This document shows positions 3 to 56,364 of a stretch of 64,000 nt of DNA, one piece after another; position 1 is the stretch's first letter, and each line of letters opens with the position of its first letter. Made by a program: the position numbers and the translations under genes. Under the pieces are notes generated by a model. It was not told the DNA's origin. It ran no database searches and saw nothing but the letters and a program-made list of their open reading frames with translations. Origin of the DNA: Candidatus Latescibacterota bacterium (lineage in GTDB: Bacteria > Latescibacterota > UBA2968 > UBA8231); NCBI GenBank assembly GCA_965242865.1, contig CBDETK010000013.1, positions 928,001 to 992,000 on the forward strand, in the 5' to 3' direction.

Positions 3-467
3 GTGGCGGGCGTCGCTTGGGAGGATATATCCTTGGAAGGCGTCTTTCACATTCTGCGCCTGCCCGATACGAAATCGGGCGTGACGCAGGAGATCAAACT
101 GCAAAACATCGTCTTACATCATCTCGAACTATACAAACAACAGCTACAGAACGCGGGTTGGCCGACGACCGGCAAGGTCTTTATCAGCCTGTCGCGCAAC
201 CAGTCTCGCGGCCAGCCCCTGACCGACCAGTCGGTAAATCACATCGTCAAGAAGTACGCCCGGCGCACCGGCCTCCCCCAAAACGTCACCGCGCACATGT
301 TTCGCCATACATGCTGCACCCTAGCGATTGAAGGCGGCGCCAAGCCCCAGCAAGTGCAGGCCCACCTGCGCCACAAGGACCTAAAGACGACCATGCGCTA
401 CTACGAAAACCGCGAAAAGCTGCTCGACAATGCGTCGGATTATATTAGGATGGGTATGGGTAGTTGA
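3..467 (+). CDS. Tyrosine recombinase (Xer/integrase family), C-terminal catalytic part, 5'-truncated by the window edge
   Basis: Catalytic motifs DTKSG (K), HMFRH (HxxR) and HLRHKDLKTTMRY (H...Y). Confidence 0.9.
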   Translation: MAGVAWEDISLEGVFHILRLPDTKSGVTQEIKLQNIVLHHLELYKQQLQNAGWPTTGKVFISLSRNQSRGQPLTDQSVNHIVKKYARRTGLPQNVTAHMFRHTCCTLAIEGGAKPQQVQAHLRHKDLKTTMRYYENREKLLDNASDYIRMGMGS

Positions 468-545: not shown

Positions 546-573
546 TGTTTACATAATATATTTTATAAGACAT
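546..573 (-). other. dif-like XerCD recombination site 1 (candidate chromosomal dif)
   Basis: Minus strand ATGTCTTATAA-AATATA-TTATGTAAACA, an 11-6-11 layout; right arm nearly identical to the B. subtilis dif arm TTATGTAAACT; intergenic, 78 bp after the recombinase stop. Confidence 0.8.
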
Positions 574-618
574 CATATTACGGATATTGCAGATTGAGGT
601 GTGTTGTGACCTCTCGTG

Positions 619-1560
619 TCACTCGGCGATATCCAAGTGCCGCTGAAAGGTCGCCAGATCGGCTGCTTGCACTGCCATGCGATGCAACTGCTTGAGCCGG
701 TGCAAATCGTGAATCGCGGCAATGCGGGCGGCCAACGAATGGGCGGAGGCCGCCCCAAAGCGAATCTCCAACACGTCGAGAATATCTTCAATGGCGCGGT
801 TGCGGCCCCCCTGCTCAATGCCCTGCTCAATGCCCTGCTCAATGCCCTGCTCAATGCCCTGCTCAATGCCCTGTTGGGTGAGGTGTTGAGCAAAGGATGA
901 TTCGCGCATGATTGCGTCCATAAGACCCTCCTGGGAAATAATACGCTGAATGGTGGTCCACTCGTAAGCCAACCCACTCAGTATCGCCAAGCCGCCCAAA
1001 AAGTCAACCTTGACGGCCGGATCCAATGGCATCGCCTGGGTTGCCTGAATGCACTGGCGCAACCACGCTTCCGAGGCCATGCCGGCCGGCGGTTTCATCA
1101 AGGGCGTGAAAGGAAGCAAACCCGACGGACCGGCGCGGACAACCGCTTGTCCCTCGATTTCGCTCAACCGAATGACCTTGTATTGCACCAAGATGCAGTG
1201 GCCGGGCAGGTCTTGGGCGTAGTAGCCCGGATCGCGCCGCCCGGCTTGGGGCCGTAGGTAAATCACGCTGGAATAGACCGGCTGGCGATGTTGTTCAATG
1301 GCGCGGATGATATAGCTGGCCATGCGGAGCGGCATGGGCGGGTCGGTGCGGTCGGTGGTTTGAAACTCGTGATGGACCAACGCCTCTTCACCGGCGATTT
1401 GGGCGCGCATGAGGCTATCGGTTTGGTGGGTTTCGACGGTGGATTGCTCTGGGTTGATGACTTCGCAGGCCGCCACATCGTCTCGTTGGAGGGCGAAGCG
1501 GACGAAGTCGGCGGGATAGGCTTGGATCAGGTGTTTGGAAATGGTATCGTATTCGGCCAT
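619..1560 (-). CDS. Rpn/YhgA-like PD-(D/E)XK nuclease / putative transposase family protein
   Basis: YD...K N-terminus, TDSL...HHEFQT motif, RMASY, PVYSSVIYL, C-terminal EQGI repeats and LEIRFG tail. Confidence 0.8.
   Translation of the reverse strand: MAEYDTISKHLIQAYPADFVRFALQRDDVAACEVINPEQSTVETHQTDSLMRAQIAGEEALVHHEFQTTDRTDPPMPLRMASYIIRAIEQHRQPVYSSVIYLRPQAGRRDPGYYAQDLPGHCILVQYKVIRLSEIEGQAVVRAGPSGLLPFTPLMKPPAGMASEAWLRQCIQATQAMPLDPAVKVDFLGGLAILSGLAYEWTTIQRIISQEGLMDAIMRESSFAQHLTQQGIEQGIEQGIEQGIEQGIEQGGRNRAIEDILDVLEIRFGAASAHSLAARIAAIHDLHRLKQLHRMAVQAADLATFQRHLDIAE
809..873. repeat. 12-bp tandem repeat CCCTGCTCAATG x5 (encodes QGIE repeats)
   Basis: Five perfect units plus a partial unit, inside the Rpn gene. 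Confidence 0.95.
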
Positions 1561-1568
1561 AACAATTC

Positions 1569-4493
1569 CTACACCACAATATTGACGATCTTATTCGGCA
1601 CCCAGATAAATCGCTTTATCGCCGCTTCATCGGCCACGTACCGCTGGATGCTCTCCATGGCGAGCACCAAGGATTTTATCTCTTCCTCGCCGGTGTGGAC
1701 CGGCACTTCGACTTGTCCGCGCATTTTGCCATTGACCTGAATGGGTACTACGATCAAGTCCTCGGCGGCCTTTGCTGCATCCCACCGCGGCCAACTCTGA
1801 CGACTGAGGCCCTCCGCCTCCTCTGCCCCCAAGCCGGCCAACTCCCATAGCTCCTCGGCAAGGTGCGGCGCAAAGGGCGCGAGCAAGAGCAAGAAGGGCT
1901 TGGCGACGGCCTGCGGCACCTCGTCTAAGGACACCAACAAGTTGTTTAGCTCGATCAAGGCGGCAATGGCCGTGTTAAACCGCAGCCCCTCTATGTCCTC
2001 GGTCACCTTTTGGATGGTTTGGTGCAGCTTTCTTTCCAAGTCCGGGGTCAGTGCCGTGCTCGTCCCTATTTTTATGCGTCGCTCTGAATCGACGAAGTTG
2101 CGCCAAACCCGCTGCAAAAAACGCTGCATCCCGCGGATGCCTTCCATGCTCCACGGCGCACTCGCTTCGAGCGGCCCCATGTACATTTCGTACAGCCGCA
2201 GGGTATCCACGCCAAATTCCTCGCCGACTTCTTCGGGTGGCAACCCGTTTTTATAGCGTTTGCCCATCTTGCCGAAGGACCGGTGCAGCCGCTTCCCCGT
2301 CCCCTTCTCAACAGGCTCCCCGTCGTGGAACTCGACCTCGCGGATGTCGATATACACGCCGCGATCGTCTTGGAAAGCATCGGCCGTCATCATGCCTTGA
2401 TTGAACAGCTTCTTAAACGGCTCGGGCGTAGATACGTGGCCCAAGTCGTAGAGGGCCTTGTGCCAAAACCGGGCGTAGAGCAAGTGCAACACCGCGTGTT
2501 CAGCACCGCCGATGTACAGATCGACCGGCATGAAGTAGCCTTCCTTGGCCGGGTCGCAGAAGGCTTCTTCGTTGTGTGGGTCGATAAAGCGGAGATAGTA
2601 CCAGCACGAACCAGCCCATTGGGGCATGACGTTGAGTTCGCGCTGGCAGGCCACCCCGTCAATTGCTACAGTCGTCCATTCCGCGCCAGCCCGGTGCAGC
2701 GGCGGCGACACGGGTTGCGCGGGATCGTCCGAGGTCTCCGGCCTGAAATCCTTTAGGTCCGGCAGCACCACCGGAGGGCCGGCCGCGACCGAATATCCGT
2801 CGGGATGCGTGGCCAGTGGAAAGGGTTCGCCCCAATAGCGCTGCCGCGCAAAGGTCCAGTCGCGCAGCTTGTAGTGTACCGCGGCTTGGCCGCGCCTGTG
2901 GGCTTCTAGAGCGGCGACAATTTGGGCTTTGGCCGCGGCGGATGCCAAGCCGTTAATGGCATAAAAATTATCGCCGGCCGCTGGAACAGGAGGCGAATGG
3001 ATCGCGGTTCCCTCGCCAGCATACCACCCGGTCTGGCCAGCACCAGCCAGCGGAAGCACGGCCCCGCCTTCCTCTTCGGCCACCACGCGCACGATGTCCA
3101 AGCTATACGCGGTGGCAAAGGCAAAGTCGCGCTCGTCGTGGGCCGGCACGGCCATGATGGCCCCCGCGCCGTAGTCCATGCTGACGTAGTCCGCGACAAA
3201 GATGGGGATTTTTTGCTCATTGACTGGATTGCGGGCGTAGATGCCGGAGAAAATCCCGGTTTTTTCCTTGGTCTCATCGGCGGTGGCGACGGCAGCCTGA
3301 GCTACGTACTCGGCGACGGCTTCCCGGATGGAGGCTCCGCTCCCCTTCCACTGCGCCGGCGTCCCCTCGGGCCAAGCACTCGGAACCAAGTAGGATTCTG
3401 ACGCGGGATCGACCAGCGGATGCAGCGGAGCAATGGCCATAAAGGTCGCGCCAAAGAGCGTGTCGGGCCGGGTCGTGAACACGGGCAACGGCTCGACGAC
3501 CGCGTCGCTTTGCGAATCGAGGACATCGAAATGCACTTCCGCCCCTTCGCTGCGGCCGATCCAATTGCGCTGCATCCGCTTGATGGGTTCGGGCCAATCG
3601 AGGCAAAAGGGCGCGCCGTGGCGGTCCTCCAGCTCGGCGTCCAAATCCGCCAAGAGCCGCTCGGCGTAGGCTGTGATGCGCATCGTCCACTGCCGCAATG
3701 GCTTGCGATAGACCGGGAAATCGCCCCGCTCGCTGCGGCCTTCGTTGGTCACCTCCTCGTTGGCCAACACAGTGCCCAAGCGAGGGCACCAGTTGACGAC
3801 GGCCTCTTGCTGGTACGCCAAGCGGTAGTTGTTCAACACGGCTTGCCGTTCCACCGCGGTGAGGGCCGCCCAGTCGGCCTCCGAGTGGAGCGTTTGGCGG
3901 TCGGCGGGCGACAAGGCCCGGCCGGCCGCAAATTGGGCCTCTAAGTCGGCGAGAGGCTTGGCCCGCCCCTGTATGAGGCGTCCTTGGCTGTCTTCCCAAG
4001 TATCGTCTTCGTCGAAATAGCTATTGAAGAGTTGGGCAAAAATCCACTGGGTCCAGCGGTAGTACGACACCTGCGAGGTGACCACTTCGCGCTCCCAGTC
4101 AAACGACAGCCCGAGAAACTGCAACTGGCCGCGCATGGCCGCGATATTCTGCTCGGTAACGGTCGCGGGATGGATGTTGTGTTCGATGGCGTATTGCTCG
4201 GCCGGCAACCCAAAACTGTCGAACCCCATCGGGTGCAGGACGTTAAAGCCCTGCATCCTTTTGTAGCGGCTGTAGATGTCGCTGGCGATGTACCCTTTGG
4301 GATGGCCGATGTGCAACCCCGCGCCGCTGGGATAGGGAAACATATCGAGGATGTAGCACTTGGGTTTGCTGCCGTCAAACCCGGGATCGCCCGGTCCCCG
4401 CGTTTGATAGGTCTGCTCCCGCTGCCAATGGGACCGCCATTTGGCCTCGATGGTTTGGAAGTTGTACTGGTTTGTTTTCTCTTTGGTTGACAT
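1569..4493 (-). CDS. leuS: Leucine--tRNA ligase
   Basis: MFPYPSGAGLHIGH (HIGH), KMGKR (KMSKS variant), editing domain TTRPDT; start moved to ATG 4493 behind AAGGAG. Confidence 0.97.
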   Translation of the reverse strand: MSTKEKTNQYNFQTIEAKWRSHWQREQTYQTRGPGDPGFDGSKPKCYILDMFPYPSGAGLHIGHPKGYIASDIYSRYKRMQGFNVLHPMGFDSFGLPAEQYAIEHNIHPATVTEQNIAAMRGQLQFLGLSFDWEREVVTSQVSYYRWTQWIFAQLFNSYFDEDDTWEDSQGRLIQGRAKPLADLEAQFAAGRALSPADRQTLHSEADWAALTAVERQAVLNNYRLAYQQEAVVNWCPRLGTVLANEEVTNEGRSERGDFPVYRKPLRQWTMRITAYAERLLADLDAELEDRHGAPFCLDWPEPIKRMQRNWIGRSEGAEVHFDVLDSQSDAVVEPLPVFTTRPDTLFGATFMAIAPLHPLVDPASESYLVPSAWPEGTPAQWKGSGASIREAVAEYVAQAAVATADETKEKTGIFSGIYARNPVNEQKIPIFVADYVSMDYGAGAIMAVPAHDERDFAFATAYSLDIVRVVAEEEGGAVLPLAGAGQTGWYAGEGTAIHSPPVPAAGDNFYAINGLASAAAKAQIVAALEAHRRGQAAVHYKLRDWTFARQRYWGEPFPLATHPDGYSVAAGPPVVLPDLKDFRPETSDDPAQPVSPPLHRAGAEWTTVAIDGVACQRELNVMPQWAGSCWYYLRFIDPHNEEAFCDPAKEGYFMPVDLYIGGAEHAVLHLLYARFWHKALYDLGHVSTPEPFKKLFNQGMMTADAFQDDRGVYIDIREVEFHDGEPVEKGTGKRLHRSFGKMGKRYKNGLPPEEVGEEFGVDTLRLYEMYMGPLEASAPWSMEGIRGMQRFLQRVWRNFVDSERRIKIGTSTALTPDLERKLHQTIQKVTEDIEGLRFNTAIAALIELNNLLVSLDEVPQAVAKPFLLLLAPFAPHLAEELWELAGLGAEEAEGLSRQSWPRWDAAKAAEDLIVVPIQVNGKMRGQVEVPVHTGEEEIKSLVLAMESIQRYVADEAAIKRFIWVPNKIVNIVV

Positions 4494-4512
4494 AAAACTC
4501 CTTATAAGACAT
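4485..4512 (-). other. dif-like site 2, overlapping the leuS RBS and start codon
   Basis: ATGTCTTATAA-GGAGTT-TTATGTCAACC; arms match site 1 at 20/22 positions. Confidence 0.75.
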
Positions 4513-5819: not shown

Positions 5820-5887
5820 CGTCATGCCCGCGAACGCGGGAATCCAGATGTGGGTATTCCGTCATGCCCGCGAACGCGGGAATCCAG
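5820..5887. repeat. Two direct copies of a 28-bp palindromic REP/dRS3-like element
   Basis: CGTCATGCCCGCGAACGCGGGAATCCAG at 5820-5847 and 5860-5887; internal hairpin CCCGCG-AA-CGCGGG. Confidence 0.85.
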
Positions 5888-12706: not shown

Positions 12707-14059
12707 CTACTCAACCCTTGGGTCTGCCTCATCGCCCGCAGCAGGCGCGGCGAGCGCCTCTTCCCCCTCAGCCTCAGCAGCGGTCAATGACTCGATATCG
12801 ACCTCGCCGTGCTCGGCAAGGTACGCGGCGGCGGCCGCCTTTACTCCGTGGGCGGCTTCGGCTGGCTCTAGGCCTGGCACGGTCTGCAATAGCTCCAACT
12901 CGGCCTCGGCAACCGAGGTAATGGAGTCGAAACCGGACGTGGTCAAACTCAGGGCAATCAGTTCGCTAATGCCATCTATCTGGCGGAATACTTGCTGGTA
13001 CTGCTCCTGTTTGGCTCGGCGCTCTTGGTATTGCTCATCGGTGATAATATCGAGGCCCCAACCTGTGAGTTGGCTCGCGAGTTTGGTGTTTTGCCCCCCC
13101 TTGCCAATGGCCAGCGACAGCTGCTCCTCTTCGACGAGCACGACGGCGTGCCGACGGCGCGAATCCGTGATGCAGCGCATTACATTGGCGGGGCTTAGGG
13201 CCCGACTTATGAATATATCCGGCTCGTCGATCCAAGGAACGATGTCTATGCGCTCGCCGCTCAATTCTCGGACGACGGCTTGGACCCGCGACCCTTTCAC
13301 GCCGACACAGGCTCCCACGGGGTCCACGCGCTCGTCGCTGCTGCTGACCGCGATTTTTGCCCGCTCGCCCGGGTCGCGGGCTACGCCGTGAATTTCGACG
13401 GTGCCCTCGGCTATCTCGGGCACTTCCGTAGCAAAGAGCTTTCTGAGGAATTCGGGCCGCGTGCGGGAGAGCAAAACCTGAGGCCCCCGGCTCGACTTGA
13501 GCACCTCGTATATATAGCCTCGCACTGCATCGCCTTGGCGATAGCGCTCGCGGCGGATTTGCTCTTTGTATGGAACGGCCGCTTCGGCCCGGCCGAGGTT
13601 GAGGATGATGTCGCCGTGGCTGATCTGCTGCACAGAACCGGACTCGACGAGGCCGACCCGGCCGATAAATTCGTCGTATATTCGCTCGCGCTCGGCTTCG
13701 CGGACCCGCTGAATGAGAATTTGCTTTGCGGTTTGGATGGCATTGCGGCCAAAGTCGGCAAAATTGAGCTGTTGCACCAGCACGGAACCCAACTGGACAT
13801 GCGGGTCTAGGTCCTGCGCGTCGGCGAGGAGGATTTCCATGGACGGCTCGACCACTTCTTCGACGACGGTCTTGCGGGCGTACACGGCCATTTTGCCTTG
13901 GGCCGCGTCGATGTCAACTTCGTAGTTTTCAGTATTGCCGTAGTGCCTTTTGGCGGCTGAAATCAGGGCGTCGGCCAAGGTCTGCACCACCAATTCCCGG
14001 TCGACGTTTTTTTCGCGGGCAATCTGTCCCAAAGCTTCAACAATATTGGCGTTGTTCAT
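12707..14059 (-). CDS. nusA: Transcription termination/antitermination factor NusA
   Basis: FGRNAIQTAKQ, ARDPGERAKIAV, AIGKGGQN; C-terminal HhH repeat. Confidence 0.96.
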   Translation of the reverse strand: MNNANIVEALGQIAREKNVDRELVVQTLADALISAAKRHYGNTENYEVDIDAAQGKMAVYARKTVVEEVVEPSMEILLADAQDLDPHVQLGSVLVQQLNFADFGRNAIQTAKQILIQRVREAERERIYDEFIGRVGLVESGSVQQISHGDIILNLGRAEAAVPYKEQIRRERYRQGDAVRGYIYEVLKSSRGPQVLLSRTRPEFLRKLFATEVPEIAEGTVEIHGVARDPGERAKIAVSSSDERVDPVGACVGVKGSRVQAVVRELSGERIDIVPWIDEPDIFISRALSPANVMRCITDSRRRHAVVLVEEEQLSLAIGKGGQNTKLASQLTGWGLDIITDEQYQERRAKQEQYQQVFRQIDGISELIALSLTTSGFDSITSVAEAELELLQTVPGLEPAEAAHGVKAAAAAYLAEHGEVDIESLTAAEAEGEEALAAPAAGDEADPRVE

Positions 14060-14564: not shown

Positions 14565-14590
14565 AAAAAAGTGGGCTATGATGCCCACTT
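14565..14590 (-). promoter_or_regulatory. rimP leader hairpin/attenuator
   Basis: AAGTGGGC-ATCATA-GCCCACTT plus T-tract upstream of rimP, matching the known GGGC/GCCC rimP leader. Confidence 0.75.
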
Positions 14591-14658
14591 GGGATTATAA
14601 AATATGGGATTGTATTGATTTAGGCAAGACGACTTAACAGCCCTCGCCAAATGCCCAG

Positions 14659-15054
14659 TCAGAGGAGGCGCAAAATCTCGCGCAGCTCCTTTTGGGCCTC
14701 TTTGAGCATTCTGAATGCGGCCTCTCGCTCTGGTGCGGGATCCGGCGGCCGCCGCTCCCCAACCGAAACGAGCGGGACTTGCTCGCCAGCTTGGCGCAGG
14801 AGCTCGGGCTCGTCTTTGAGCTTCTTCTTTACGCCCTGCGTCGTATAACGCTCCTCGTAGAGGAGGCGTTTGAGCAACAAGATGATCCCTATGTCGCGCT
14901 CCCGATAGGCCCTGTTTTTACCACCGCGTGCGCGCCGCGGCCGCAAACAGGCAAACTCCTTCTCCCACGCCCTGAGCGTATAGGGTTGCAGTTGAGTAAG
15001 TTCGGCAACCTCGCTGATGCTGTAATACAGCTTGTTTTGCAATGGGTTTTTCAC
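14659..15054 (-). CDS. MerR-family HTH regulator
   Basis: KLYYSISEVAE...LRAWEKEF..L.P...R.Y...DI. Confidence 0.88.
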   Translation of the reverse strand: MKNPLQNKLYYSISEVAELTQLQPYTLRAWEKEFACLRPRRARGGKNRAYRERDIGIILLLKRLLYEERYTTQGVKKKLKDEPELLRQAGEQVPLVSVGERRPPDPAPEREAAFRMLKEAQKELREILRLL

Positions 15055-16406
15055 GATCGCCCTTCCCTCGAACTCTTGCGCCGACGCCAGACGATGCGCA
15101 GGGGCGTTCCCTCGAAATCAAACTCCGACCGCAGCCGATTTTCAATGTGGCGTCGATAATTTTCTGGCACGGAGCGGGACCGATTCGTAAAGATCGTAAA
15201 CGCCGGCGGGTTGATCGCGTGTTGGGTGGCGTAGAGCAGGCGGATGTCTCGGCCTGCTTGGGCCGCCAAGTACTCGCCGGAGAGTTGCTGAATGATCTTG
15301 TTCAAGCGCGGGGTGGGAATCCGCGTCCGGCGCTTGTTGCCCACAGCGGCCACCACTTCGAGACACTTATGGACCCGCCGCCCGGTCAAGCCCGACAGGC
15401 ACAGCACCGGATAGTCGCGCAAAAAGGGATAGCGGTCGCGCAACGCCCGGCGGTACTCGGCCGCGGTGCCCTCGGCGACTAAATCCCATTTGTTGATCGC
15501 CACCACCAAGCCGCCGCCAGATTTTATCACTTGCTCCATGATGCGGACATCTTGCATAACCCACCCCTCGGCGCCGTCTAGCAGCACGACCGCCACATCG
15601 GCTTGGGCAATGCTGTTGGCCGCCCGGCGCGTACTGTAGAATTCCACCGGATCATCCACCTTAGACCGCCGCCGCAACCCGGCCGTATCCACGAACAGTA
15701 AGCGGCTATCTTGCCAAGTCAAGCGCAGTTGCGTTGGGTCCCGGGTGGTCCCGGGCTGAGGGTGGACGATGGAAACCTGATGGCCGGCGAGGCGGTTGAT
15801 CAGCGTGGACTTGCCCACGTTGGGCCGCCCGACTAAAGCGACCCGGATCGCCTCGTCATCCCATTCCGGCCCATGCCCCCCAGCCTCGTCAAAGAGCGCG
15901 ATCAGCGCGTCGAGCACCGCGCCGGAACGCCGCCCGGTAACGGCCGAGAGCGGCAGGGGGTCTCCCAAGCCGAGCCGGTAAAATTCGTCGAGCGCAGCGA
16001 CCGGCCCCACCTCGTCGATCTTGTTGACGGCCAGCAAGCACTTCCCGCCCCGGCTGCGCAGCATGGCCCCCAATTCTTGGTCGAGATCGGTCAAACCCGT
16101 GGTCCCGTCGCAGAGAAAAATCGCGATATCCGCCTCGGCCAGTGCCCGGGCCGCTTGCGCGCGCACGGCCGCCGCGAGCGCGTCTTGGGCACCGGGCATA
16201 TAGCCTCCGGTATCGACCAGCGTGAAAGACCGGCCTCCCCACTCGGCCGCGGCAAAAATCGGATCGCGCGTGACCCCGGGCTGGCCGTCGGTTATGGCCC
16301 ACCGGGTGCCCAAGATGCGGTTGAAAAGCGTGGACTTGCCCACGTTGGGCCGCCCGACAATCGCCACGATGGGCCGGCGTTGATTCTCGATGGTTTGGGT
16401 GCTCAC
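15051..16406 (-). CDS. der: Ribosome biogenesis GTPase Der
   Basis: Two GRPNVGKSTL G-domains; F.FEGTP C-terminus; GTG start overlapping the upstream stop. Confidence 0.96.
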   Translation of the reverse strand: MSTQTIENQRRPIVAIVGRPNVGKSTLFNRILGTRWAITDGQPGVTRDPIFAAAEWGGRSFTLVDTGGYMPGAQDALAAAVRAQAARALAEADIAIFLCDGTTGLTDLDQELGAMLRSRGGKCLLAVNKIDEVGPVAALDEFYRLGLGDPLPLSAVTGRRSGAVLDALIALFDEAGGHGPEWDDEAIRVALVGRPNVGKSTLINRLAGHQVSIVHPQPGTTRDPTQLRLTWQDSRLLFVDTAGLRRRSKVDDPVEFYSTRRAANSIAQADVAVVLLDGAEGWVMQDVRIMEQVIKSGGGLVVAINKWDLVAEGTAAEYRRALRDRYPFLRDYPVLCLSGLTGRRVHKCLEVVAAVGNKRRTRIPTPRLNKIIQQLSGEYLAAQAGRDIRLLYATQHAINPPAFTIFTNRSRSVPENYRRHIENRLRSEFDFEGTPLRIVWRRRKSSREGRS

Positions 16407-18021: not shown

Positions 18022-18966
18022 TCAACCCATCCCCCAGCGATACTCCCACTCGCCGACGATGCGCTCAACGACGCCGGTCTTTCCCCATACATCGAGATCG
18101 AGTACGCGCAAGCGGCGGTCGCGGCGGCACCACGTGGTTTGTCGTTTGGCCAAGTGCCGGGTGCGCTGTTTGGTCTGCTCAATGGCTTCGCGCCAAGGGC
18201 AATGCCCGGCCAGCGCGCGGCACAATTCAAAATAGCCCAAAGTCCCCAAGGCGCTGTCGCCGCGCTCGTATCCCAAGGCGCGCAAGGCGCGCACTTCTTC
18301 GATCCATCCTCGTTCCACCATTTGCTCGACCCGCTCGTCAATCCGCTCGTAGAGCCGGCCGCGGGCCATGGTCAGGCAGATCATCTGCGGCTGCTGCACG
18401 AGCGGCTGCCCGGTGCGCTCCCGACACAGGGTGCTGAGCGTACTCTTTCCGGCCAGCGCGACCTCCAACGCCCGCAAAATCCGCTGCCCGTCGCCCGGGT
18501 GCAACCGCGCTTGCGCGACCGGATCCCGATGGCCCAACTCCTCGTATAAGGAGGCAATTCCCTCGCCGTGCAGGCGATTGCACAATTCAGCGCGGATCGG
18601 CGCGTATTCGGTGTCGTCCGCAAAGCAGCCATCCAACGCGCTCTGCCAGTACAGGCCCGTCCCGCCGACCATCACGGGCAGGCCCCCTCGGTTCCAGACC
18701 TGCCCAATGACGCGCCGCGCCGCACGAGCGTACGCGCCCGCGCTGTAGTTTTTCTCCGGCGGGAGCACATCGAGCAGGTGATGGGGGCATTGGTTTTGCT
18801 GTTCAGGGGTTGGCTTGGCCGTGCCAATATCCAGGTAGCGATAGATTTGCCGCGAGTCGGCTGAGATGATTTCCACGTTGGGCAAGCGCTGGGCTACTTC
18901 GAGGGCTATTTCCGTTTTGCCGGTGGCGGTGGGGCCGGTGATTAGGATGAGTGGTTTGCTTGACAT
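18022..18966 (-). CDS. miaA: tRNA dimethylallyltransferase
   Basis: GPTATGKT, DSRQIY..LDIGTAKP, VGGTGLY, AKRQ.TW. Confidence 0.96.
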   Translation of the reverse strand: MSSKPLILITGPTATGKTEIALEVAQRLPNVEIISADSRQIYRYLDIGTAKPTPEQQNQCPHHLLDVLPPEKNYSAGAYARAARRVIGQVWNRGGLPVMVGGTGLYWQSALDGCFADDTEYAPIRAELCNRLHGEGIASLYEELGHRDPVAQARLHPGDGQRILRALEVALAGKSTLSTLCRERTGQPLVQQPQMICLTMARGRLYERIDERVEQMVERGWIEEVRALRALGYERGDSALGTLGYFELCRALAGHCPWREAIEQTKQRTRHLAKRQTTWCRRDRRLRVLDLDVWGKTGVVERIVGEWEYRWGMG

Positions 18967-18985
18967 AATTACAATTATGGGAACT
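18958..18985 (-). other. dif-like site 3, overlapping the rqcH stop and miaA start
   Basis: AGTTCCCATAA-TTGTAA-TTATGTCAAGC; 11-6-11 dif layout, same orientation as sites 1 and 2. Confidence 0.7.
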
Positions 18986-20654: not shown

Positions 20655-23414
20655 CTAGGCTTCGACGCGCTCAAGGCTGGCGGTTAGCTTTTCCCGAGTG
20701 GCGCGGTATTCGGCTTGGCGTTGGCGCTCTTGCGCGACGATTTTGGGCGGCGCTTTGGCGAGGAAGCGTTCATTAGCCAGTTTGGCGTCTAGGCCTTTGA
20801 GCAAGCTGTCCATCTTTTGGATTTCTCGTTTGAGCCGCTGCCGCTCGGCCCCTAGGTCGATCAACCCCGCTAAGGGCACGAAAATCTCGGCCGCGGCCGT
20901 CATCGCGCTCCCGGCCGCCGGCGGCCGGACCAGCCCCTGCCCGACTTGCACGGAGGCGGCCCGGCTCAACAGCGCGATGTAAGGGACGGCTCGGCGCAGG
21001 GTCTGCTCCACCTCGTCCGAGGCGGCCGAAATCAAGACCTCGACTTGACGACCGGGCGGGACATTCCGCTCGCCGCGAATGATCCGCACGCCGGTCACCA
21101 CCTCTTGCAGGCACTGCATGCGCGCTTCGGCCTCTGGGTCTATTAGCTCGTCATCGCAGGTCGGCCAAGCCGCGACCATGATGCTGTTGGCCGACGCGCC
21201 GTGCGGCAGCGCCTGCCACAAGGTCTCGGTGATAAAGGGCATAATGGGGTGCAACAGCCGCAGAGCGGTTTCGAGCACCTGCACGAGGTGCGCTTGGGCG
21301 GTGCGCCGTGCTTGGCGATCTCCTTCCTGCAAGCGCGCTTTGGCCAATTCGAGATACCAATCGCAATAGTCGCGCCAGACAAAGTCGTAAATGGCTCGCG
21401 TCAGGTCGCTGAAGCGGTGGGATTGCAGGGCCGCGGTCATCTCGCGCACGGTTCCCTGCAACCGACTCCAGATCCAGCGGTCAACCCATTCGCTCCGCTC
21501 GCCCGGGCCTCGCTCGTATCCGTCGATGTTCATCAGCACGAAGCGGGTCGCATTCCACAGCTTGTTGCCAAAGTTGCGGCCGGCCTCCGCGCTGGCCGAA
21601 GCCTGTACTTGGTTGTCGGCCACCACGGCATCAAAGCGCACATCTTGGACAGCCCCGGCCTGCGCCAACAGACAGTACCGGGTCGCATCCGCGCCGTAGC
21701 GCGCCACCAAGTCAAGCGGATTGAGGCCCGTGCCCAAGCTCTTGCTCATGCGGCGGCCGTCGCGCGTCAGGATAGTCGGGTGAACCAGCACGGTCTTAAA
21801 GGGAATTTGCTCTACGCACTCTAGCGAGGTCATGGCCATCCGCAACACCCACAAATAGAGAATGTCGCGGGCCGTGATGAGCAAATCCGTGGGATAAAAG
21901 TACGTTAGCGCGTCGCTGCGCTGGGGCCAGCCGAGCGTGGCAAAGGGCCACAGGGCGGAAGAAAACCACGTGTCGAGCACGTCTGGGTCCTGTACCCAAG
22001 CCCGGCCCCCGCAGTCGGCGCAGGCGGCCGGCTCGGTCGCGCTGACCACCGGCTTGGCCCCGGCCGCCACCGAGACCCTAAAGTTGCCCTCGCGCAGGGC
22101 TTCCTCCCGGTTCAAGTCGAACATGGGGATCAGCGCGTCCCCGCTGCACTGGGTGCAATACCAAGCGGGAATGCGATGCCCCCACCAGATCTGCCGCGAC
22201 AAGGGCCAGTCGCGTATTTGGTCCAACCACTCAATGGCATAGTGGCGGAAGCGGTCGGGCGCGTATTGGATGTCCCCCTGCACGAGCGCGGGCCGCGCCT
22301 TGGCCGCCAACTCCTTCATGTTCATAAACCACTGCTCCATCGGCAGGGGTTCGACGACCGTGCCGCACTTGTCGTGGTGCGGCACCGCGTGTTCGTGCTC
22401 TTCTATTTTTGCCAGCAGCCCCTCGGCTTCCAGCGCAGCCACGACCGCTTTGCGGGCCGCGTGGCGATCCAACCCGGTAAAACGACCCGCCGCCTCGGTC
22501 ATGACCCCGTCAAAGCCGATGACTTGGATTTGCGCCAGCTCGTGCCGCCGGCCCAGCGCGTAGTCGTTGGGATCGTGGGCCGGCGTGACCTTGACGGCGC
22601 CGCTGCCCAACTCGGGATCGGCGTATTCGTCGGCGACGATGGGAATGGCTCGATCCGTCAGCGGCAACTCGACTTGCTGGCCAATGGCCTCGCGCCAGCG
22701 GTCGTCGGTCGGGTGGACGGCCACGGCCGTGTCCCCGAGCATGGTCTCCGGCCGCGTAGTCGCGACCACGACTTGCAGCCCGCCCGCTCGGGCCGGGTAG
22801 CGAATGTGCCACAAGTGGCCGGCCACCTCGCGCTCTTCGGTCTCTAGGTCGGAAATGACCGTGCGGCACTGCGGGCACCAGTTGATCATGCGGGTGCCGC
22901 GGTAAATCCACCCTTGCGTGGCAAAATGGGTGAAGGCCTGCAAGACAGCCTCGACGTAGTCCTCGTCGAGCGTGAACCGCTCCCGACGCCAATCGTAGCT
23001 GGCGCCGAGTTGGCGCAGTTGGCGGTAGATGGCGTCGCCGTATTTTTCCTTCCACTGCCAAATCCGGTCGATCATGGCGGCCCGCCCCAAGTCGTAGCGA
23101 GTCTTGCCTTCGACCTGCAACAGCTCTTGCTCGACCTTCAGATGGGTGGCAATGCCCGCGTGGTCCGTGCCCGGCAGGCAGAGCGTCTCAAAGCCCTGCA
23201 TCCGCTTCCACCGGACGACTAAGTCGTGGATGGCGTGTTGAATCGCGTGGCCCATGTGCAACTCGCCGGTGACGTTGGGCGGGGGAATGGCGATGCAGTA
23301 CGGGGGCTTGTCCGGGTTGATCTCCGCATTAAAGAGGCCATTTTCCTCCCAGAAATCGCCCCATTTTTTTTCTATGGCCCCAGGATCATACGTCTTGGCC
23401 AATTCTTCGGTCAT
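20655..23414 (-). CDS. valS: Valine--tRNA ligase
   Basis: PPPNVTGELHMGHA, DVLDTWFSS, RMSKSLG, C-terminal coiled coil. Confidence 0.98.
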   Translation of the reverse strand: MTEELAKTYDPGAIEKKWGDFWEENGLFNAEINPDKPPYCIAIPPPNVTGELHMGHAIQHAIHDLVVRWKRMQGFETLCLPGTDHAGIATHLKVEQELLQVEGKTRYDLGRAAMIDRIWQWKEKYGDAIYRQLRQLGASYDWRRERFTLDEDYVEAVLQAFTHFATQGWIYRGTRMINWCPQCRTVISDLETEEREVAGHLWHIRYPARAGGLQVVVATTRPETMLGDTAVAVHPTDDRWREAIGQQVELPLTDRAIPIVADEYADPELGSGAVKVTPAHDPNDYALGRRHELAQIQVIGFDGVMTEAAGRFTGLDRHAARKAVVAALEAEGLLAKIEEHEHAVPHHDKCGTVVEPLPMEQWFMNMKELAAKARPALVQGDIQYAPDRFRHYAIEWLDQIRDWPLSRQIWWGHRIPAWYCTQCSGDALIPMFDLNREEALREGNFRVSVAAGAKPVVSATEPAACADCGGRAWVQDPDVLDTWFSSALWPFATLGWPQRSDALTYFYPTDLLITARDILYLWVLRMAMTSLECVEQIPFKTVLVHPTILTRDGRRMSKSLGTGLNPLDLVARYGADATRYCLLAQAGAVQDVRFDAVVADNQVQASASAEAGRNFGNKLWNATRFVLMNIDGYERGPGERSEWVDRWIWSRLQGTVREMTAALQSHRFSDLTRAIYDFVWRDYCDWYLELAKARLQEGDRQARRTAQAHLVQVLETALRLLHPIMPFITETLWQALPHGASANSIMVAAWPTCDDELIDPEAEARMQCLQEVVTGVRIIRGERNVPPGRQVEVLISAASDEVEQTLRRAVPYIALLSRAASVQVGQGLVRPPAAGSAMTAAAEIFVPLAGLIDLGAERQRLKREIQKMDSLLKGLDAKLANERFLAKAPPKIVAQERQRQAEYRATREKLTASLERVEA

Positions 23415-27942: not shown

Positions 27943-29520
27943 TCACGCCTGTTCCATCTCAAAGGCGACCACAGTGCGCGTCTGCGGGCTAAACTCCACG
28001 CCCACAAGGTAAATCGCCGCCCCGCGCCCGCGATACTTGGCCGCGTAGTCCCGCGCCTGCAACTGACCCAACGCCGACCCCGACGGAGACCGTTCCACCA
28101 CCTTGAACTCGAACAGATACACGTTCTCATTGAACGCCACCGCCATGTCCAACCGTCCCTCCCGGCTGCTGTCCTCCACCGTAATCGAAAGCCCCAGCGA
28201 CGCAAAGTACGAGTAAAACACGCTGGCGTAATAGCCCTCGTAGTGAGCAATCTCATTATTCGTATGCCACTGATAGGGAATGCTGGCAAAGAACGCCTTG
28301 AATAGGGCTTCCAAACCCGCGAAGTCGTTGACCAGCAGCAGATCGTACAGCCGCGCACTGTGCTCAACTCGGCGCGCCGGGTTGCCCGTCAGGTGGCTCA
28401 GCAAGCTCTTGTTCAGGCTCTGCTGCACCTCCCGATTGGGATAGCCCAGCCGATAGTAGGGCTCCCCGCCGCGCACCTCGGCGCGGCGAATAGTCAGGTA
28501 GCCGGTCTGGAACAGCAACGCCTCCGTCGCAATGTGATCCACGTCAAACGACGACAGCAACTCCTCGCTGCCCAGCAGATCCTCCAACGCCAAGGAGCTA
28601 ATCCCCCGCTCCAACAACATCTCCAGCAGAAACGTCGGCGTTCCCGTCTCAAACCAATAGGGCGCGAACTGGCGGCGGTCGAACAGCAGGAGGACATCAA
28701 AGGGGTTGTACACTTGTTCCTCCCCCAGCCAGTTGTAGCCATTGTACCACGTGCGGATGGCTTCGCGGTCCAAGCCGGGCAGTTCCGCGGCAAACACCGC
28801 GTCCAAGTCCGCCTCCGTGTAGCCGCAAATCGCCGAGTAGCGCGGGTCTAAGGTAATGTCTTTGAGGTTGTTGAGGCCGGAGAATAGGCTGACCTTGGAA
28901 AACTTGCTCACCCCAGTGAGAAAGCTAAACGCGATGTGCGCGTCGCAGTCCTTGATCGTCGAATACAATCCGCGCAGGAAGTCGCGGTTCGCCCGCGCCA
29001 CCTCCGGCACCTCTAGCGCGTCTAAGATCGGCTTGTCGTACTCGTCAATCAGCACCACCACCCGGCGACCAGTCTGTTGATGCAGCATCTTCAGCACATG
29101 CCGGAAACGCCCCCGTGCCGTGTCGTAGCTGGCCTCCACCGAAACCGCACGCTCCACCTCGTCCAACTGCTCCAGCACGTCTTGGTGCAGGTCGCCCGGA
29201 TCCTTGAAATGGCCGCTGCCAAAGCTCAGCCGCACCACCGGATGGCGCACCGACCAGTCCCACTGCGGGTGGATGGCCAATCCCGCAAACAGCGGCTCGT
29301 TGCCCGCGAACAATTCCTTCAGCGTATCCAGAAACAGGCTCTTGCCAAACCGACGAGGACGAGACAGAAAATAGTGCTTGCCCTCGGCCACTAACCCACC
29401 GATGTAGCCAGTCTTATCGACGTAGTAGCAGTTATCCTCGCGGATCTCGCGGAAGGTCTGAATGCCAATGGGCAATTTGCGACGAGCCGACGGACCCGCG
29501 TCAGGTTTTATCAGTAGCAT
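27943..29520 (-). CDS. AAA-ATPase-like protein with C-terminal PD-(D/E)XK nuclease domain (start uncertain)
   Basis: LPIGIQTF, YVDKT, RPRRFGKSL, IDEYDKP, GRLD...FEFK..ALGQ...Y. Confidence 0.9.
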   Translation of the reverse strand: MLLIKPDAGPSARRKLPIGIQTFREIREDNCYYVDKTGYIGGLVAEGKHYFLSRPRRFGKSLFLDTLKELFAGNEPLFAGLAIHPQWDWSVRHPVVRLSFGSGHFKDPGDLHQDVLEQLDEVERAVSVEASYDTARGRFRHVLKMLHQQTGRRVVVLIDEYDKPILDALEVPEVARANRDFLRGLYSTIKDCDAHIAFSFLTGVSKFSKVSLFSGLNNLKDITLDPRYSAICGYTEADLDAVFAAELPGLDREAIRTWYNGYNWLGEEQVYNPFDVLLLFDRRQFAPYWFETGTPTFLLEMLLERGISSLALEDLLGSEELLSSFDVDHIATEALLFQTGYLTIRRAEVRGGEPYYRLGYPNREVQQSLNKSLLSHLTGNPARRVEHSARLYDLLLVNDFAGLEALFKAFFASIPYQWHTNNEIAHYEGYYASVFYSYFASLGLSITVEDSSREGRLDMAVAFNENVYLFEFKVVERSPSGSALGQLQARDYAAKYRGRGAAIYLVGVEFSPQTRTVVAFEMEQA

Positions 29521-29661
29521 AGCTTGATCCACCTCAACGTGTAGCTTGGGCAGGTACGGACCTAGTACCGACAAGATAGACGACCGGGACAACCCATGCA
29601 AAGAGGAATTGGCTACCGAGCGCCGACTGTACGCGCTTGCAACAGCGGCTGAGACTTTGGC

Positions 29662-54833: not shown

Positions 54834-55547
54834 CTAAGCCCTCGTAAGTGCGCTTAAAACAGACTGTTGTACGGCCAATAGGCGCTGTATGCCCACAGCG
54901 GCCAAGTCGAGCAACTCAACCGCCTGCGCGCGGGTAAAGGGACGCCCCTCGGCCGTGCCTTGGACTTCGACGATCCCCCCCGAGCCGGTCATAACGACGT
55001 TCATATCGGTTTCGGCGCGGCTGTCTTCCTCATAGCACAGATCCAATAGGGGCTGGTCCCCGATTATCCCGACGCTAATGGCGGCCACTTGCTCGGCGAG
55101 TCCAGCGACTTGGATCGTCTGCAATGCCTCTACCAAAGCCACGTAAGCCCCTGTTATGGAGGCCGTGCGCGTTCCGCCATCGGCCTGTATGACATCGCAA
55201 TCGACATACAGCGTGCGCTCGCCGATTTGCTCCAAATTCACCACAGCGCGCAACGAGCGGCCGATCAGCCGCTGAATCTCCCGCGCCCGGCTATTGGCTC
55301 CACGAGCTACCCGGCGCGCCGAAGAGCCCGGCAGCATGCTGTACTCAGCGGTCAGCCACCCCTTGCCGGTCCCCGCCAGAAAGGGCGGCACGCTATCGAC
55401 GGGCGACACCGTGCAGAGCACCTTGGTATCGCCCAGTTCGATCAGGGCCGATCCAGCGGCCGTTTTTAGGTATTTCGGGGTGATCTGCACCGGCCGCAGT
55501 TGAGCGGGCCGGCGTCCATCGCCGCGCTTCGAGCGGGTCTCACGCAT
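54834..55547 (-). CDS. rph: Ribonuclease PH
   Basis: [41 protein letters not shown]. Confidence 0.96.
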
Positions 55548-56364
55548 TGAGATGATCCCGATAATTAGGGCCGTCCATGGGGATGGGTTGGCACATCTCT
55601 ACTAAGCGCGAGTAGATGCGGCCCTTGGCAAAGCCCTTGAGTTCGTCGAGGGGCTGATTCGTGGTAACGACCGTGAACCGCTGGTCGCCGTAACGAGTAT
55701 CGACGAGATCGTAGAGCATTTCCTCTTCCCAATCGGTCCCCCGCTGGACCCCAAAGTCGTCTAGGACGAGGTAAGGCATCTTGCACAGTTCTTCGAGCAT
55801 TGGCCAAGTGCGGCCATAGTGCTCGCTGTCGGCCGAAAAGGTGTCGCGCAACCTGTGGAACGTGCGCGACAAACTGAGAAAGCGACCCGGTTTGGTCCAG
55901 CGCAACATGAGTTCGTTGAGGGCAATACAGCCCACCAAGGTCTTGCCCGTGCCGAGACTTCCGTAGAGGAGATAGCCCCGCTCAGGCTCTTCGGCTGCTC
56001 CGAGCAGATCTTGGTGAATGCGGAGATAGACCGTATTGAATAGGTCAATGGGCGTCCCGTCTGGTGCCGCCATGCGGAAGTCGTCGATGAACTTCCACTT
56101 GAATTTCTCGGGAATCTCGGCTTGGCGAAACAAGCGGTTGGTTTCCGCAATTTTTCGGCGATAGGGACGGCAGGGGCACCACTGATTGCGCGAATCGTCG
56201 TCCCAGTACTGGTACGGTGCCTTCCCTCCACAGCGGCACTCAATGCACTCGCAAAGCCGGAGCGTGCCATAGCGGCCCACCTTGACTATTGGATCGTAGT
56301 ACAGGCCCACACTGCTGCATTTAGAACAACGCGGCGCTTCCCGGCTGGGCGCGGGCAAACTCAC
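55540..56364 (-). CDS. DnaC/IstB-like AAA+ ATPase with Cys-rich N-terminus
   Basis: [41 protein letters not shown]. Confidence 0.85.

Follow-up and report, generated by a model that had tools for sequence, protein, structure and literature searches.

Dif-type recombination sites around an invertible xer-mutL segment and a resident leuS gene at a probable replication terminus in Candidatus Latescibacterota and related bacteria

RESULTS

Two dif-type sites bracket leuS

The leucyl-tRNA synthetase gene leuS of a Candidatus Latescibacterota bacterium lies between two 28-bp sequences that resemble dif, the chromosomal site of Xer recombination. Both sequences are near the left end of a 64,000-nucleotide stretch (contig CBDETK010000013.1 of GenBank assembly GCA_965242865.1, positions 928,001 to 992,000 of the forward strand), which is referred to here as the window. 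From left to right, the features of this end are as follows.

3..467, plus strand: Xer-like tyrosine recombinase, C-terminal 154 residues (PF00589, E = 2e-20); the gene continues beyond the left end of the window
546..573, minus strand: site 1 (site B), a 28-bp dif-type site with an 11-6-11 layout, 78 bp past the recombinase stop codon
619..1560, minus strand: Rpn-like open reading frame (ORF) of 313 amino acids (PD-(D/E)XK, putative transposase), with sub-threshold matches to TIGR01784 and PF04754
1569..4493, minus strand: leuS, leucine--tRNA ligase, 974 amino acids (TIGR00396, 906 bits); the start codon is in the right arm of site 2
4485..4512, minus strand: site 2 (site A), a 28-bp dif-like site that takes up the 19-nt asnS-leuS spacer and extends over the first leuS codons
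4513..5865, minus strand: asnS, asparagine--tRNA ligase (NF003037, 546 bits); the stop codon directly adjoins site 2

On the minus strand, site 1 reads ATGTCTTATAA-AATATA-TTATGTAAACA (window 546-573) and site 2 reads ATGTCTTATAA-GGAGTT-TTATGTCAACC (window 4485-4512). The two are direct repeats with a spacing of 3,939 bp. Their common 11-mer, ATGTCTTATAA, occurs in exactly two places in the 64-kb window, also when one mismatch is allowed, and two or more matches were obtained in 0 of 100 shuffled sequences. The full two-arm pattern matches sites 1 and 2 alone within the 64 kb, and shuffling yielded no match of any kind (0/100). A first-pass annotation of this stretch, made from its letters alone, had pointed out the identical 11-bp arm and the agreement of the second arms at 9 of 11 positions, and the pattern scan and shuffles confirm both. 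It had also called the pair dif-type recombinase sites. This identification agrees with the 11-6-11 architecture of dif (Castillo et al.) and with the right arms of published dif sites, among them TTATGTAAATA of Novosphingobium and TTATGTCAAAT of Burkholderia mallei, as given in Table 1 of Carnoy and Roten, which served as the reference for the arm comparison.

Two further descriptive points of the first-pass annotation were borne out. ORF and profile searches agree that the interval between the sites contains leuS and one 313-amino-acid ORF (619-1560, minus strand) and nothing else, and the sequence AAGGAG straddles the boundary between the left arm and the center of site 2, with the leuS ATG falling within the right arm.

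The sites recur in related genomes in a four-site layout

A scan anchored on LeuRS and limited to one genome per species recovered 24 close loci, in which LeuRS is 82 to 93% identical. All derive from metagenome-assembled genomes of Candidatus Latescibacterota or Gemmatimonadota, many of them complete chromosomes, and about 23 kb was compared per locus (individual loci are cited below by L numbers). Read with leuS running from left to right, the locus can be laid out as asnS, A>, leuS, (the Rpn-like gene, in the window genome only), B>, (orf174-mutL-xer), <C, (orf269-hprK-rsgA-prs-TPR-apt), <D, where the arrows give the orientation of each site. Site C lies ∼3.5 kb past site B and is inverted relative to it; in the window genome it is ∼3.5 kb outside the left edge of the window. 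Site D faces the same direction as C and abuts the start codon of apt. The interval between B and C holds orf174, which encodes a 174-amino-acid membrane protein, mutL, and the gene for a 324-amino-acid Xer-like tyrosine recombinase, and that between C and D holds orf269, hprK, rsgA, prs, a TPR gene, and apt.

Site A, with at most two arm mismatches, was found directly upstream of leuS in all 24 relatives. In its non-coding left arm, the top-base frequency averages 0.98, and its center opens with GG, part of the Shine-Dalgarno-like sequence, in 25/25 genomes. Site B follows leuS immediately and is present in 21 of 22 genomes (21 loci and the window), in varying states of preservation: 16 of the 22 have a copy with at most two arm mismatches, two have three mismatches, one has four, one has five, one has a center of 7 nt, and one has lost the site. 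In the 20 copies of site B that were profiled, conservation was 0.93 and 0.91 for the arms, 0.72 for the center, and 0.49 for the non-coding left flank. Site C is similarly preserved (n = 21 loci; at most two mismatches in 16, three in 4, and four in 1). The sequence of site D, AAG(T/A)C(C/T)TATAA-CATATA-ATATGTAAAAT, is more divergent than those of A to C; its copies are near-identical among themselves, and it is recognizable in all 20 loci that extend to it, in one of them with a 3-nt insertion. The centers differ by site: those of B and C are composed of A and T only, that of A reads GGAxxx, and that of D reads CATATA.

The segment between sites B and C has inverted repeatedly

The genes of the B-C segment are co-directional with leuS in eight loci (L001, L003, L005, L009, L010, L017, L019, and L024) and point the opposite way in the other 13 of 21 loci and in the window, where the recombinase gene converges on leuS. 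On a maximum likelihood tree of the flanking genes (pnp, asnS, hprK, and prs; 22 rows), well-supported branches force at least six changes of orientation, a number no lower than that expected from shuffled orientation labels (mean, 6.8; 176 to 178 of 500 shuffles gave counts as low). Close sister pairs of opposite orientation are L004/L019, L009/L023, and L002/(L003, L005), and in all three the alignment switches from collinear to inverted inside sites B and C. Because both orientations are present among chromosome-level assemblies, the inversion is not an assembly artifact. The segment has inverted sites at its ends, occurs in both orientations, and breaks at the sites, as programmed invertible segments do. 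Neither the relatives' loci compared nor the promoter search at site 2 gave evidence of a switched promoter or coding sequence at the segment.

No product of exchange between A and B, A and C, or A and D was found among the relatives' loci. Inversions between A and C or between B and D, which would delete no gene, were likewise seen in 0 of the 21 and 0 of the 20 loci, respectively, that were able to show them. The first-pass annotation had paired site 1 with site 2. It was right that recombination takes place at this locus, in that segment inversion occurs at site 1, but it had the partner and the outcome wrong: by orientation, tree, and breakpoints, the demonstrable event joins site 1 (B) to the inverted site C beyond the window.

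Individual loci show local changes at and around the sites. Site B is lost altogether in L007 (∼12880-12905), and the segment in this genome should therefore be locked in one orientation. The 7-nt center of site B belongs to L021 (∼12948-12976), and the 3-nt insertion in site D, which lies within its left arm, belongs to L018 (∼22245-22275). Insertions accumulate around the sites: in L011, ∼2 kb of small ORFs has been added between the recombinase gene and mutL (14572-16262), and in L013, ∼400 bp has been added between leuS and site B (12905-13311).

leuS is a resident gene

Direct repeats of a dif-like sequence around a gene could mark it as mobile, and the first-pass annotation had proposed that leuS arrived as a dif module. 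Stated in full, this explanation holds that leuS came as a dif-bounded module, similar to integrative mobile elements exploiting Xer (IMEX) or to pdif modules, that it replaced a native leuS, and that sites 1 and 2 are integration scars. Besides the direct repeats, it can draw on the structure of the leuS start. The right arm of site A, together with the A-rich sequence that flanks it, supplies the start codon and a lysine-rich N-terminal extension, which gives the impression that the ORF was joined to a site already in place. Close LeuRS homologs begin with MST or MSI, and all nine full-length homologs at 69 to 73% identity begin with M-(S/L)-(T/I), the residues expected from translation of the right arm, while most of those at 61 to 66% identity do not. 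This distribution indicates that the overlap between site A and the start codon probably arose within the phylum, before the 24-genome clade.

The history of leuS itself does not fit a module. The order asnS-site A-leuS is kept in 24/24 relatives, and leuS occurs in no other context among the LeuRS-anchored loci. The leuS tree and the flank tree agree in their deep 10/12 split and in their sister pairs, with a distance correlation of r = 0.88; the sole conflict concerns L010, which is placed with L015 by leuS (support, 99) and with L012 and L016 by the flanking genes (support, 100). Identity among LeuRS homologs declines smoothly (82 to 92%, 69 to 73%, and 61 to 66%). Where the sources are named, they are Latescibacterota, Gemmatimonadota/Gemmatimonadetes, Handelsmanbacteria, or simply "bacterium," with the next-closest homologs at 61 to 73% identity. 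The G+C content of leuS, 0.60 to 0.63, is the same as that of its neighbors. By eye, 21 LeuRS matches below 75% identity seem to share a contig with a recombinase match, as judged from identical longest-contig sizes, 10 of them on contigs of at most 25.7 kb, which suggests that the linkage between leuS and xer is much older than the 24-genome clade. Of the traits that mark IMEX elements and dif modules, leuS thus has direct dif and dif-like flanks but neither a patchy presence or varied context nor the character of foreign cargo.

We conclude that leuS is an old, vertically inherited resident gene and not a recent or mobile module. The module explanation is accordingly improbable, and the comparison of the leuS tree with the flank tree, a counterpart of the comparison with the species tree that the first-pass annotation had suggested as a check for xenologous replacement, goes against such a replacement. 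leuS could have been captured at dif in the very distant past. As an outcome that would speak against its own idea, the same annotation had named vertical inheritance of leuS together with relatives that keep asnS-leuS and lack the arm sequences. Half of this outcome was obtained: vertical inheritance and the asnS-leuS order were found, but the relatives also retain the arm sequences, and the site arms are therefore old conserved features.

A second proposal for the same pair of sites treats site 2 as an expression switch at which exchange with site 1 would swap the ribosome-binding site of leuS. The Shine-Dalgarno-like AAGG(A/G) across the arm/center boundary of site A is what such a switch would act on. 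Because the sites are in direct orientation, however, exchange between them would delete leuS instead of switching it. The junction at A is constant in all 25 genomes, each with a GG-first center; no genome carries an altered ribosome-binding site or a product of exchange between sites 1 and 2, and A has not exchanged with C or D either. We regard a switch of this kind as very improbable.

Two side observations concern these genes. The placement of L010 hints at homologous leuS exchange between close species. In the window, a 28-nt sequence with a GC-rich palindrome inside it occurs as two identical direct copies, spaced by 40 nt and located at or above the start of asnS (5820-5847 and 5860-5887), and the copies resemble small repetitive extragenic (REP-type) elements. 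The asnS ORF of the window is longer than that of the relatives (450 versus 434 amino acids), so the repeats are probably upstream of the true asnS start.

The segment encodes an Xer-like recombinase

The recombinase is encoded by the first gene of the invertible segment. The part of it within the window is 92% identical to the full-length 324-amino-acid gene product of L003. Full-length orthologs align end to end with the XerC, XerD, and XerA models, which makes the protein Xer-like. They score 129 to 131 bits against a cut-off of 335 for XerC, 116 to 120 against 330 for XerD, 109 to 110 against 220 for XerA, and 82 to 92 against 267 for XerS. Among solved structures, E. coli XerD is the best match (1a0p, E = 1e-15). 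Many homologs are found at 60 to 78% identity, with source names of XerC, XerD, or "tyrosine-type recombinase," and no chromosome-sized contig appears twice among the 120 recombinase matches listed. Such a pattern is typical of conserved housekeeping enzymes and not of integrases from mobile elements.

The locus probably lies at the replication terminus

In all 21 loci, the sequence to the left of A has a GC skew of +0.049 to +0.085 and that to the right of C a skew of −0.024 to −0.054. On this locus-level skew, the sites are at a GC-skew switch, as expected of dif. The window, in which leuS is on the minus strand, continues the left (A) side over 64 kb, and its skew is negative throughout, including a block of plus-strand genes at 24 to 28 kb. 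Nearly all genes face the B-C segment from either side, and gene direction and skew sign reverse there. On the strength of these two reversals, we consider that the B-C locus is probably the replication terminus.

Sites at gene starts

The dif-type sites lie close to gene boundaries, and this extends to a weak fifth dif-like sequence farther inside the window.

18957..18984, minus strand: site Z, a weak fifth dif-like sequence with five arm mismatches, in the same orientation as sites 1 and 2

Site Z reads AGTTCCCATAA-TTGTAA-TTATGTCAAGC. It occupies the 17 nt that separate miaA from an NFACT-family gene, and the ATG of miaA falls within its right arm. The right-arm core TATGTMAA occurs in three places in the window, namely, sites 1, 2, and Z, each time on the minus strand. 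ORFs end or start at the dif-type sites between asnS and leuS, at orf269, at apt, and at site Z before miaA. Part of this tight fit can be explained simply: the left arm of a dif-type site contains TAA and the right arm ATG, which lets adjacent ORFs of a compact genome stop or start within the site.

The gene starts raise the question of whether the motif is instead a regulatory operator or translation-start element, with the flips mediated by RecA at short inverted repeats and unrelated to the recombinase. Four of the five site contexts are directly at the start of a gene (leuS, orf174, apt, and miaA), as an operator would be. The fifth, the copy on the xer side, has no gene start. A search for sigma-70-like promoters at site 2 gave no notable match, no stable RNA fold was found there (z = −0.32), and comparison of the site 1-site 2 region with Rfam returned no family. 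The 11-6-11 layout, the variable center between conserved arms, and a right arm that equals published XerD arms fit an Xer site. At least six flips took place exactly at the sites despite mismatched centers, and 28-bp repeats with mismatched centers are poor RecA substrates. An operator combined with RecA-mediated flipping is for these reasons quite unlikely. The opposed orientation of the sites also led us to consider polar fork barriers of the Ter/Tus type, an idea that was dropped since more is explained by the resemblance to dif, by the recombinase gene alongside, and by breakpoints that fall at the sites.

A further proposal, compatible with an Xer origin of the sites, would give site A a role: A, D, and perhaps Z may be non-recombining Xer landing sites at the terminus, like the XDS of Bacillus subtilis, dif-like sequences in ter for XerD-dependent SMC unloading (PMC11840125, citing Karaboja et al. 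2021). Several observations speak for it. A and D are conserved and never recombine, both are found no more than 12 kb from the skew switch, toward which they point from opposite sides, and the remaining 59 kb of the window has no right-arm core except that of Z. The flanks of A and D, on the other hand, are coding or tightly packed, and constraint on translation starts may explain part of their conservation. We put this proposal forward tentatively, as a possibility that falls clearly short of even odds.

The Rpn-like gene and other features of the window

The 313-amino-acid ORF has no second site at its flank: it is separated from the leuS stop codon by only 8 bp. Of the 21 relatives whose loci extend this far, only L011, the closest, has a counterpart, a 137-amino-acid remnant of 73% identity in the same place. 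The family has 1,811 matches and is multi-copy, as several chromosome-sized contigs appear twice among the matches listed. We conclude that the gene is a recent lineage-specific insertion between leuS and site B and not part of a module. The "Rpn-like" label given in the first-pass annotation has mixed support: 2 of 120 listed matches bear an NCBI Rpn-family name, but the profile scores are weak and below the Rpn cut-offs (TIGR01784, 20.6 bits versus 52.1; PF04754, 14.3 versus 21, E = 0.032).

Inside this gene, at window positions 807-885, five head-to-tail 12-bp units encode QGIE five times. Homologs range from 293 to 339 amino acids, a spread of length that may reflect the copy number of the 12-bp unit. 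Elsewhere in the window, in an otherwise housekeeping region, two features are possible mobile or defense remnants: a predicted AAA-ATPase fused to a PD-(D/E)XK nuclease domain (27943-29601) and an IstB-like ATPase ORF beside smpB (55540-56364).

DISCUSSION

We propose that the sites described here are dif-type Xer sites at a probable terminus, that exchange between B and C flips the xer-mutL segment, that leuS is a resident of the locus, and that A and D do not recombine. Our estimate of the probability of this reading is about 0.72. According to this proposal, a tyrosine recombinase would exchange strands at the inverted copies B and C and would thereby have flipped the 3.5-kb segment many times during the divergence of these species. 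The Xer-like recombinase encoded within the segment most likely performs the flips, as its adjacency and family indicate. Site A is direct with B, and D is direct with C; the two outer sites overlap the starts of leuS and apt and appear not to have recombined in any genome compared. They would be insulated from B and C, probably because their centers, GGAxxx and CATATA, differ from the A/T-only centers of the inner pair. Their conservation (0.98 for the left arm of A), together with their inward-pointing arrangement, suggests that A and D are probably kept as putative binding sites for the same protein, a role read from sequence features. The locus as a whole would serve chromosome-dimer resolution.

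Several observations weigh against this proposal. Only 5 of 19 genomes have the same center in B as in C. Classical Xer exchange depends on matched centers, and mismatched centers block Xer strand exchange in the case of VGJ-phi (Castillo et al.). Either the enzyme tolerates mismatches between A/T-only centers, or the flips date from a time of matched centers, or the 6-nt register assigned here is off. The recombinase scores far under the XerC, XerD, XerA, and XerS cut-offs and is not a member of these NCBIfam equivalogs. Skew within the B-C segment tracks the orientation of the segment, which makes the coding strand a partial source of the skew signal. In contrast to the single copy of XerCD/dif systems, at least four copies are present within ∼12 kb in most relatives, in addition to the weak site Z in the window. 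Finally, further sites or canonical xerC and xerD genes may exist elsewhere in the chromosome, given that the comparison covered ∼23 kb per relative.

In other respects the sites resemble those of XerCD/dif. They are 28-bp sequences of 11-6-11 layout with inner ATAA...TTAT and a right arm equal to published XerD arms. The center varies between species, as do the outer ends of the arms most of all, and dif is likewise described as having conserved arms and a variable center between species (Carnoy and Roten). Like dif, they are located where GC skew and gene direction change over. They differ from XerCD/dif in that two inverted copies flank the recombinase gene and in that the enzyme is below the XerC and XerD cut-offs. 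A recombinase gene that adjoins its presumed site (78 bp in the window) recalls the XerS/difSL, XerH/difH, and XerL systems; for xerS/difSL, a gene beside the site is reported by Castillo et al. (2017) and Nicholson et al. (2022). The arms read inward differ by one extra base (TGT-CTT-ATAA versus TGT-TTAC-ATAA), which is a trait of difSL (Castillo et al. 2017). Unlike in the XerS and XerH modules, the site is of the classical dif type and not an atypical difSL or difH, and the match to the XerS model is 82 to 92 bits versus 267.

Systems in which Xer sites bracket or invert DNA offer further parallels. As in IMEX elements and the pdif modules of Acinetobacter, dif-like sites bracket genes, and in those reports a degenerate or divergent second site keeps the insert stable. 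In contrast to these elements, the bracketed genes here are housekeeping genes that are fixed in all relatives, vertically inherited, and found in no other context. Short inverted sites, a local recombinase, and the presence of both orientations in nature are shared with phase-variation invertons and with the Xer-family inversions reported in Ureaplasma (PMC3599477). Unlike invertons, the segment has no visible promoter or coding switch, it trails a co-directional housekeeping operon either way, and its sites are of the dif type and at the probable terminus. The XDS are extra dif-like sequences clustered at the terminus and unused for recombination (PMC11840125), and A and D may be comparable by position and by their lack of recombination products; in the present case the sites have two conserved arms and run into gene starts, and any Xer binding or part in SMC unloading would be putative. 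A limited full-text literature search found no description of an inverted dif pair around an xer-mutL segment.

The case also carries a caution for annotation, in that dif-like repeats around a gene do not by themselves prove that the gene is mobile. One dif per chromosome is the expectation, yet several dif-type sites are retained at the probable terminus in this little-studied phylum. Two of them demonstrably recombine and flip mutL and the recombinase's own gene, and the others are frozen onto the starts of essential genes.

That the locus amounts to a new terminus architecture, in which an xer-mutL cassette flips between inverted dif sites and the outer dif-like sites at essential-gene starts are Xer landmarks, is a more far-reaching claim and, in our judgment, a rather unlikely one. 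If it were true, flipping would move the cassette between replichores and between upstream operons (asnS-leuS or hprK-orf269) and could modulate mismatch repair and recombinase levels, and the outer sites at the starts of leuS, apt, and perhaps miaA would be non-recombining landmarks, for example, for SMC unloading or as an FtsK stop. If the recombinase binds all of the sites, the locus would provide a test case for insulation based on site centers, for the organization of the terminus by extra Xer sites, and for an effect of segment orientation on the expression of mismatch repair.

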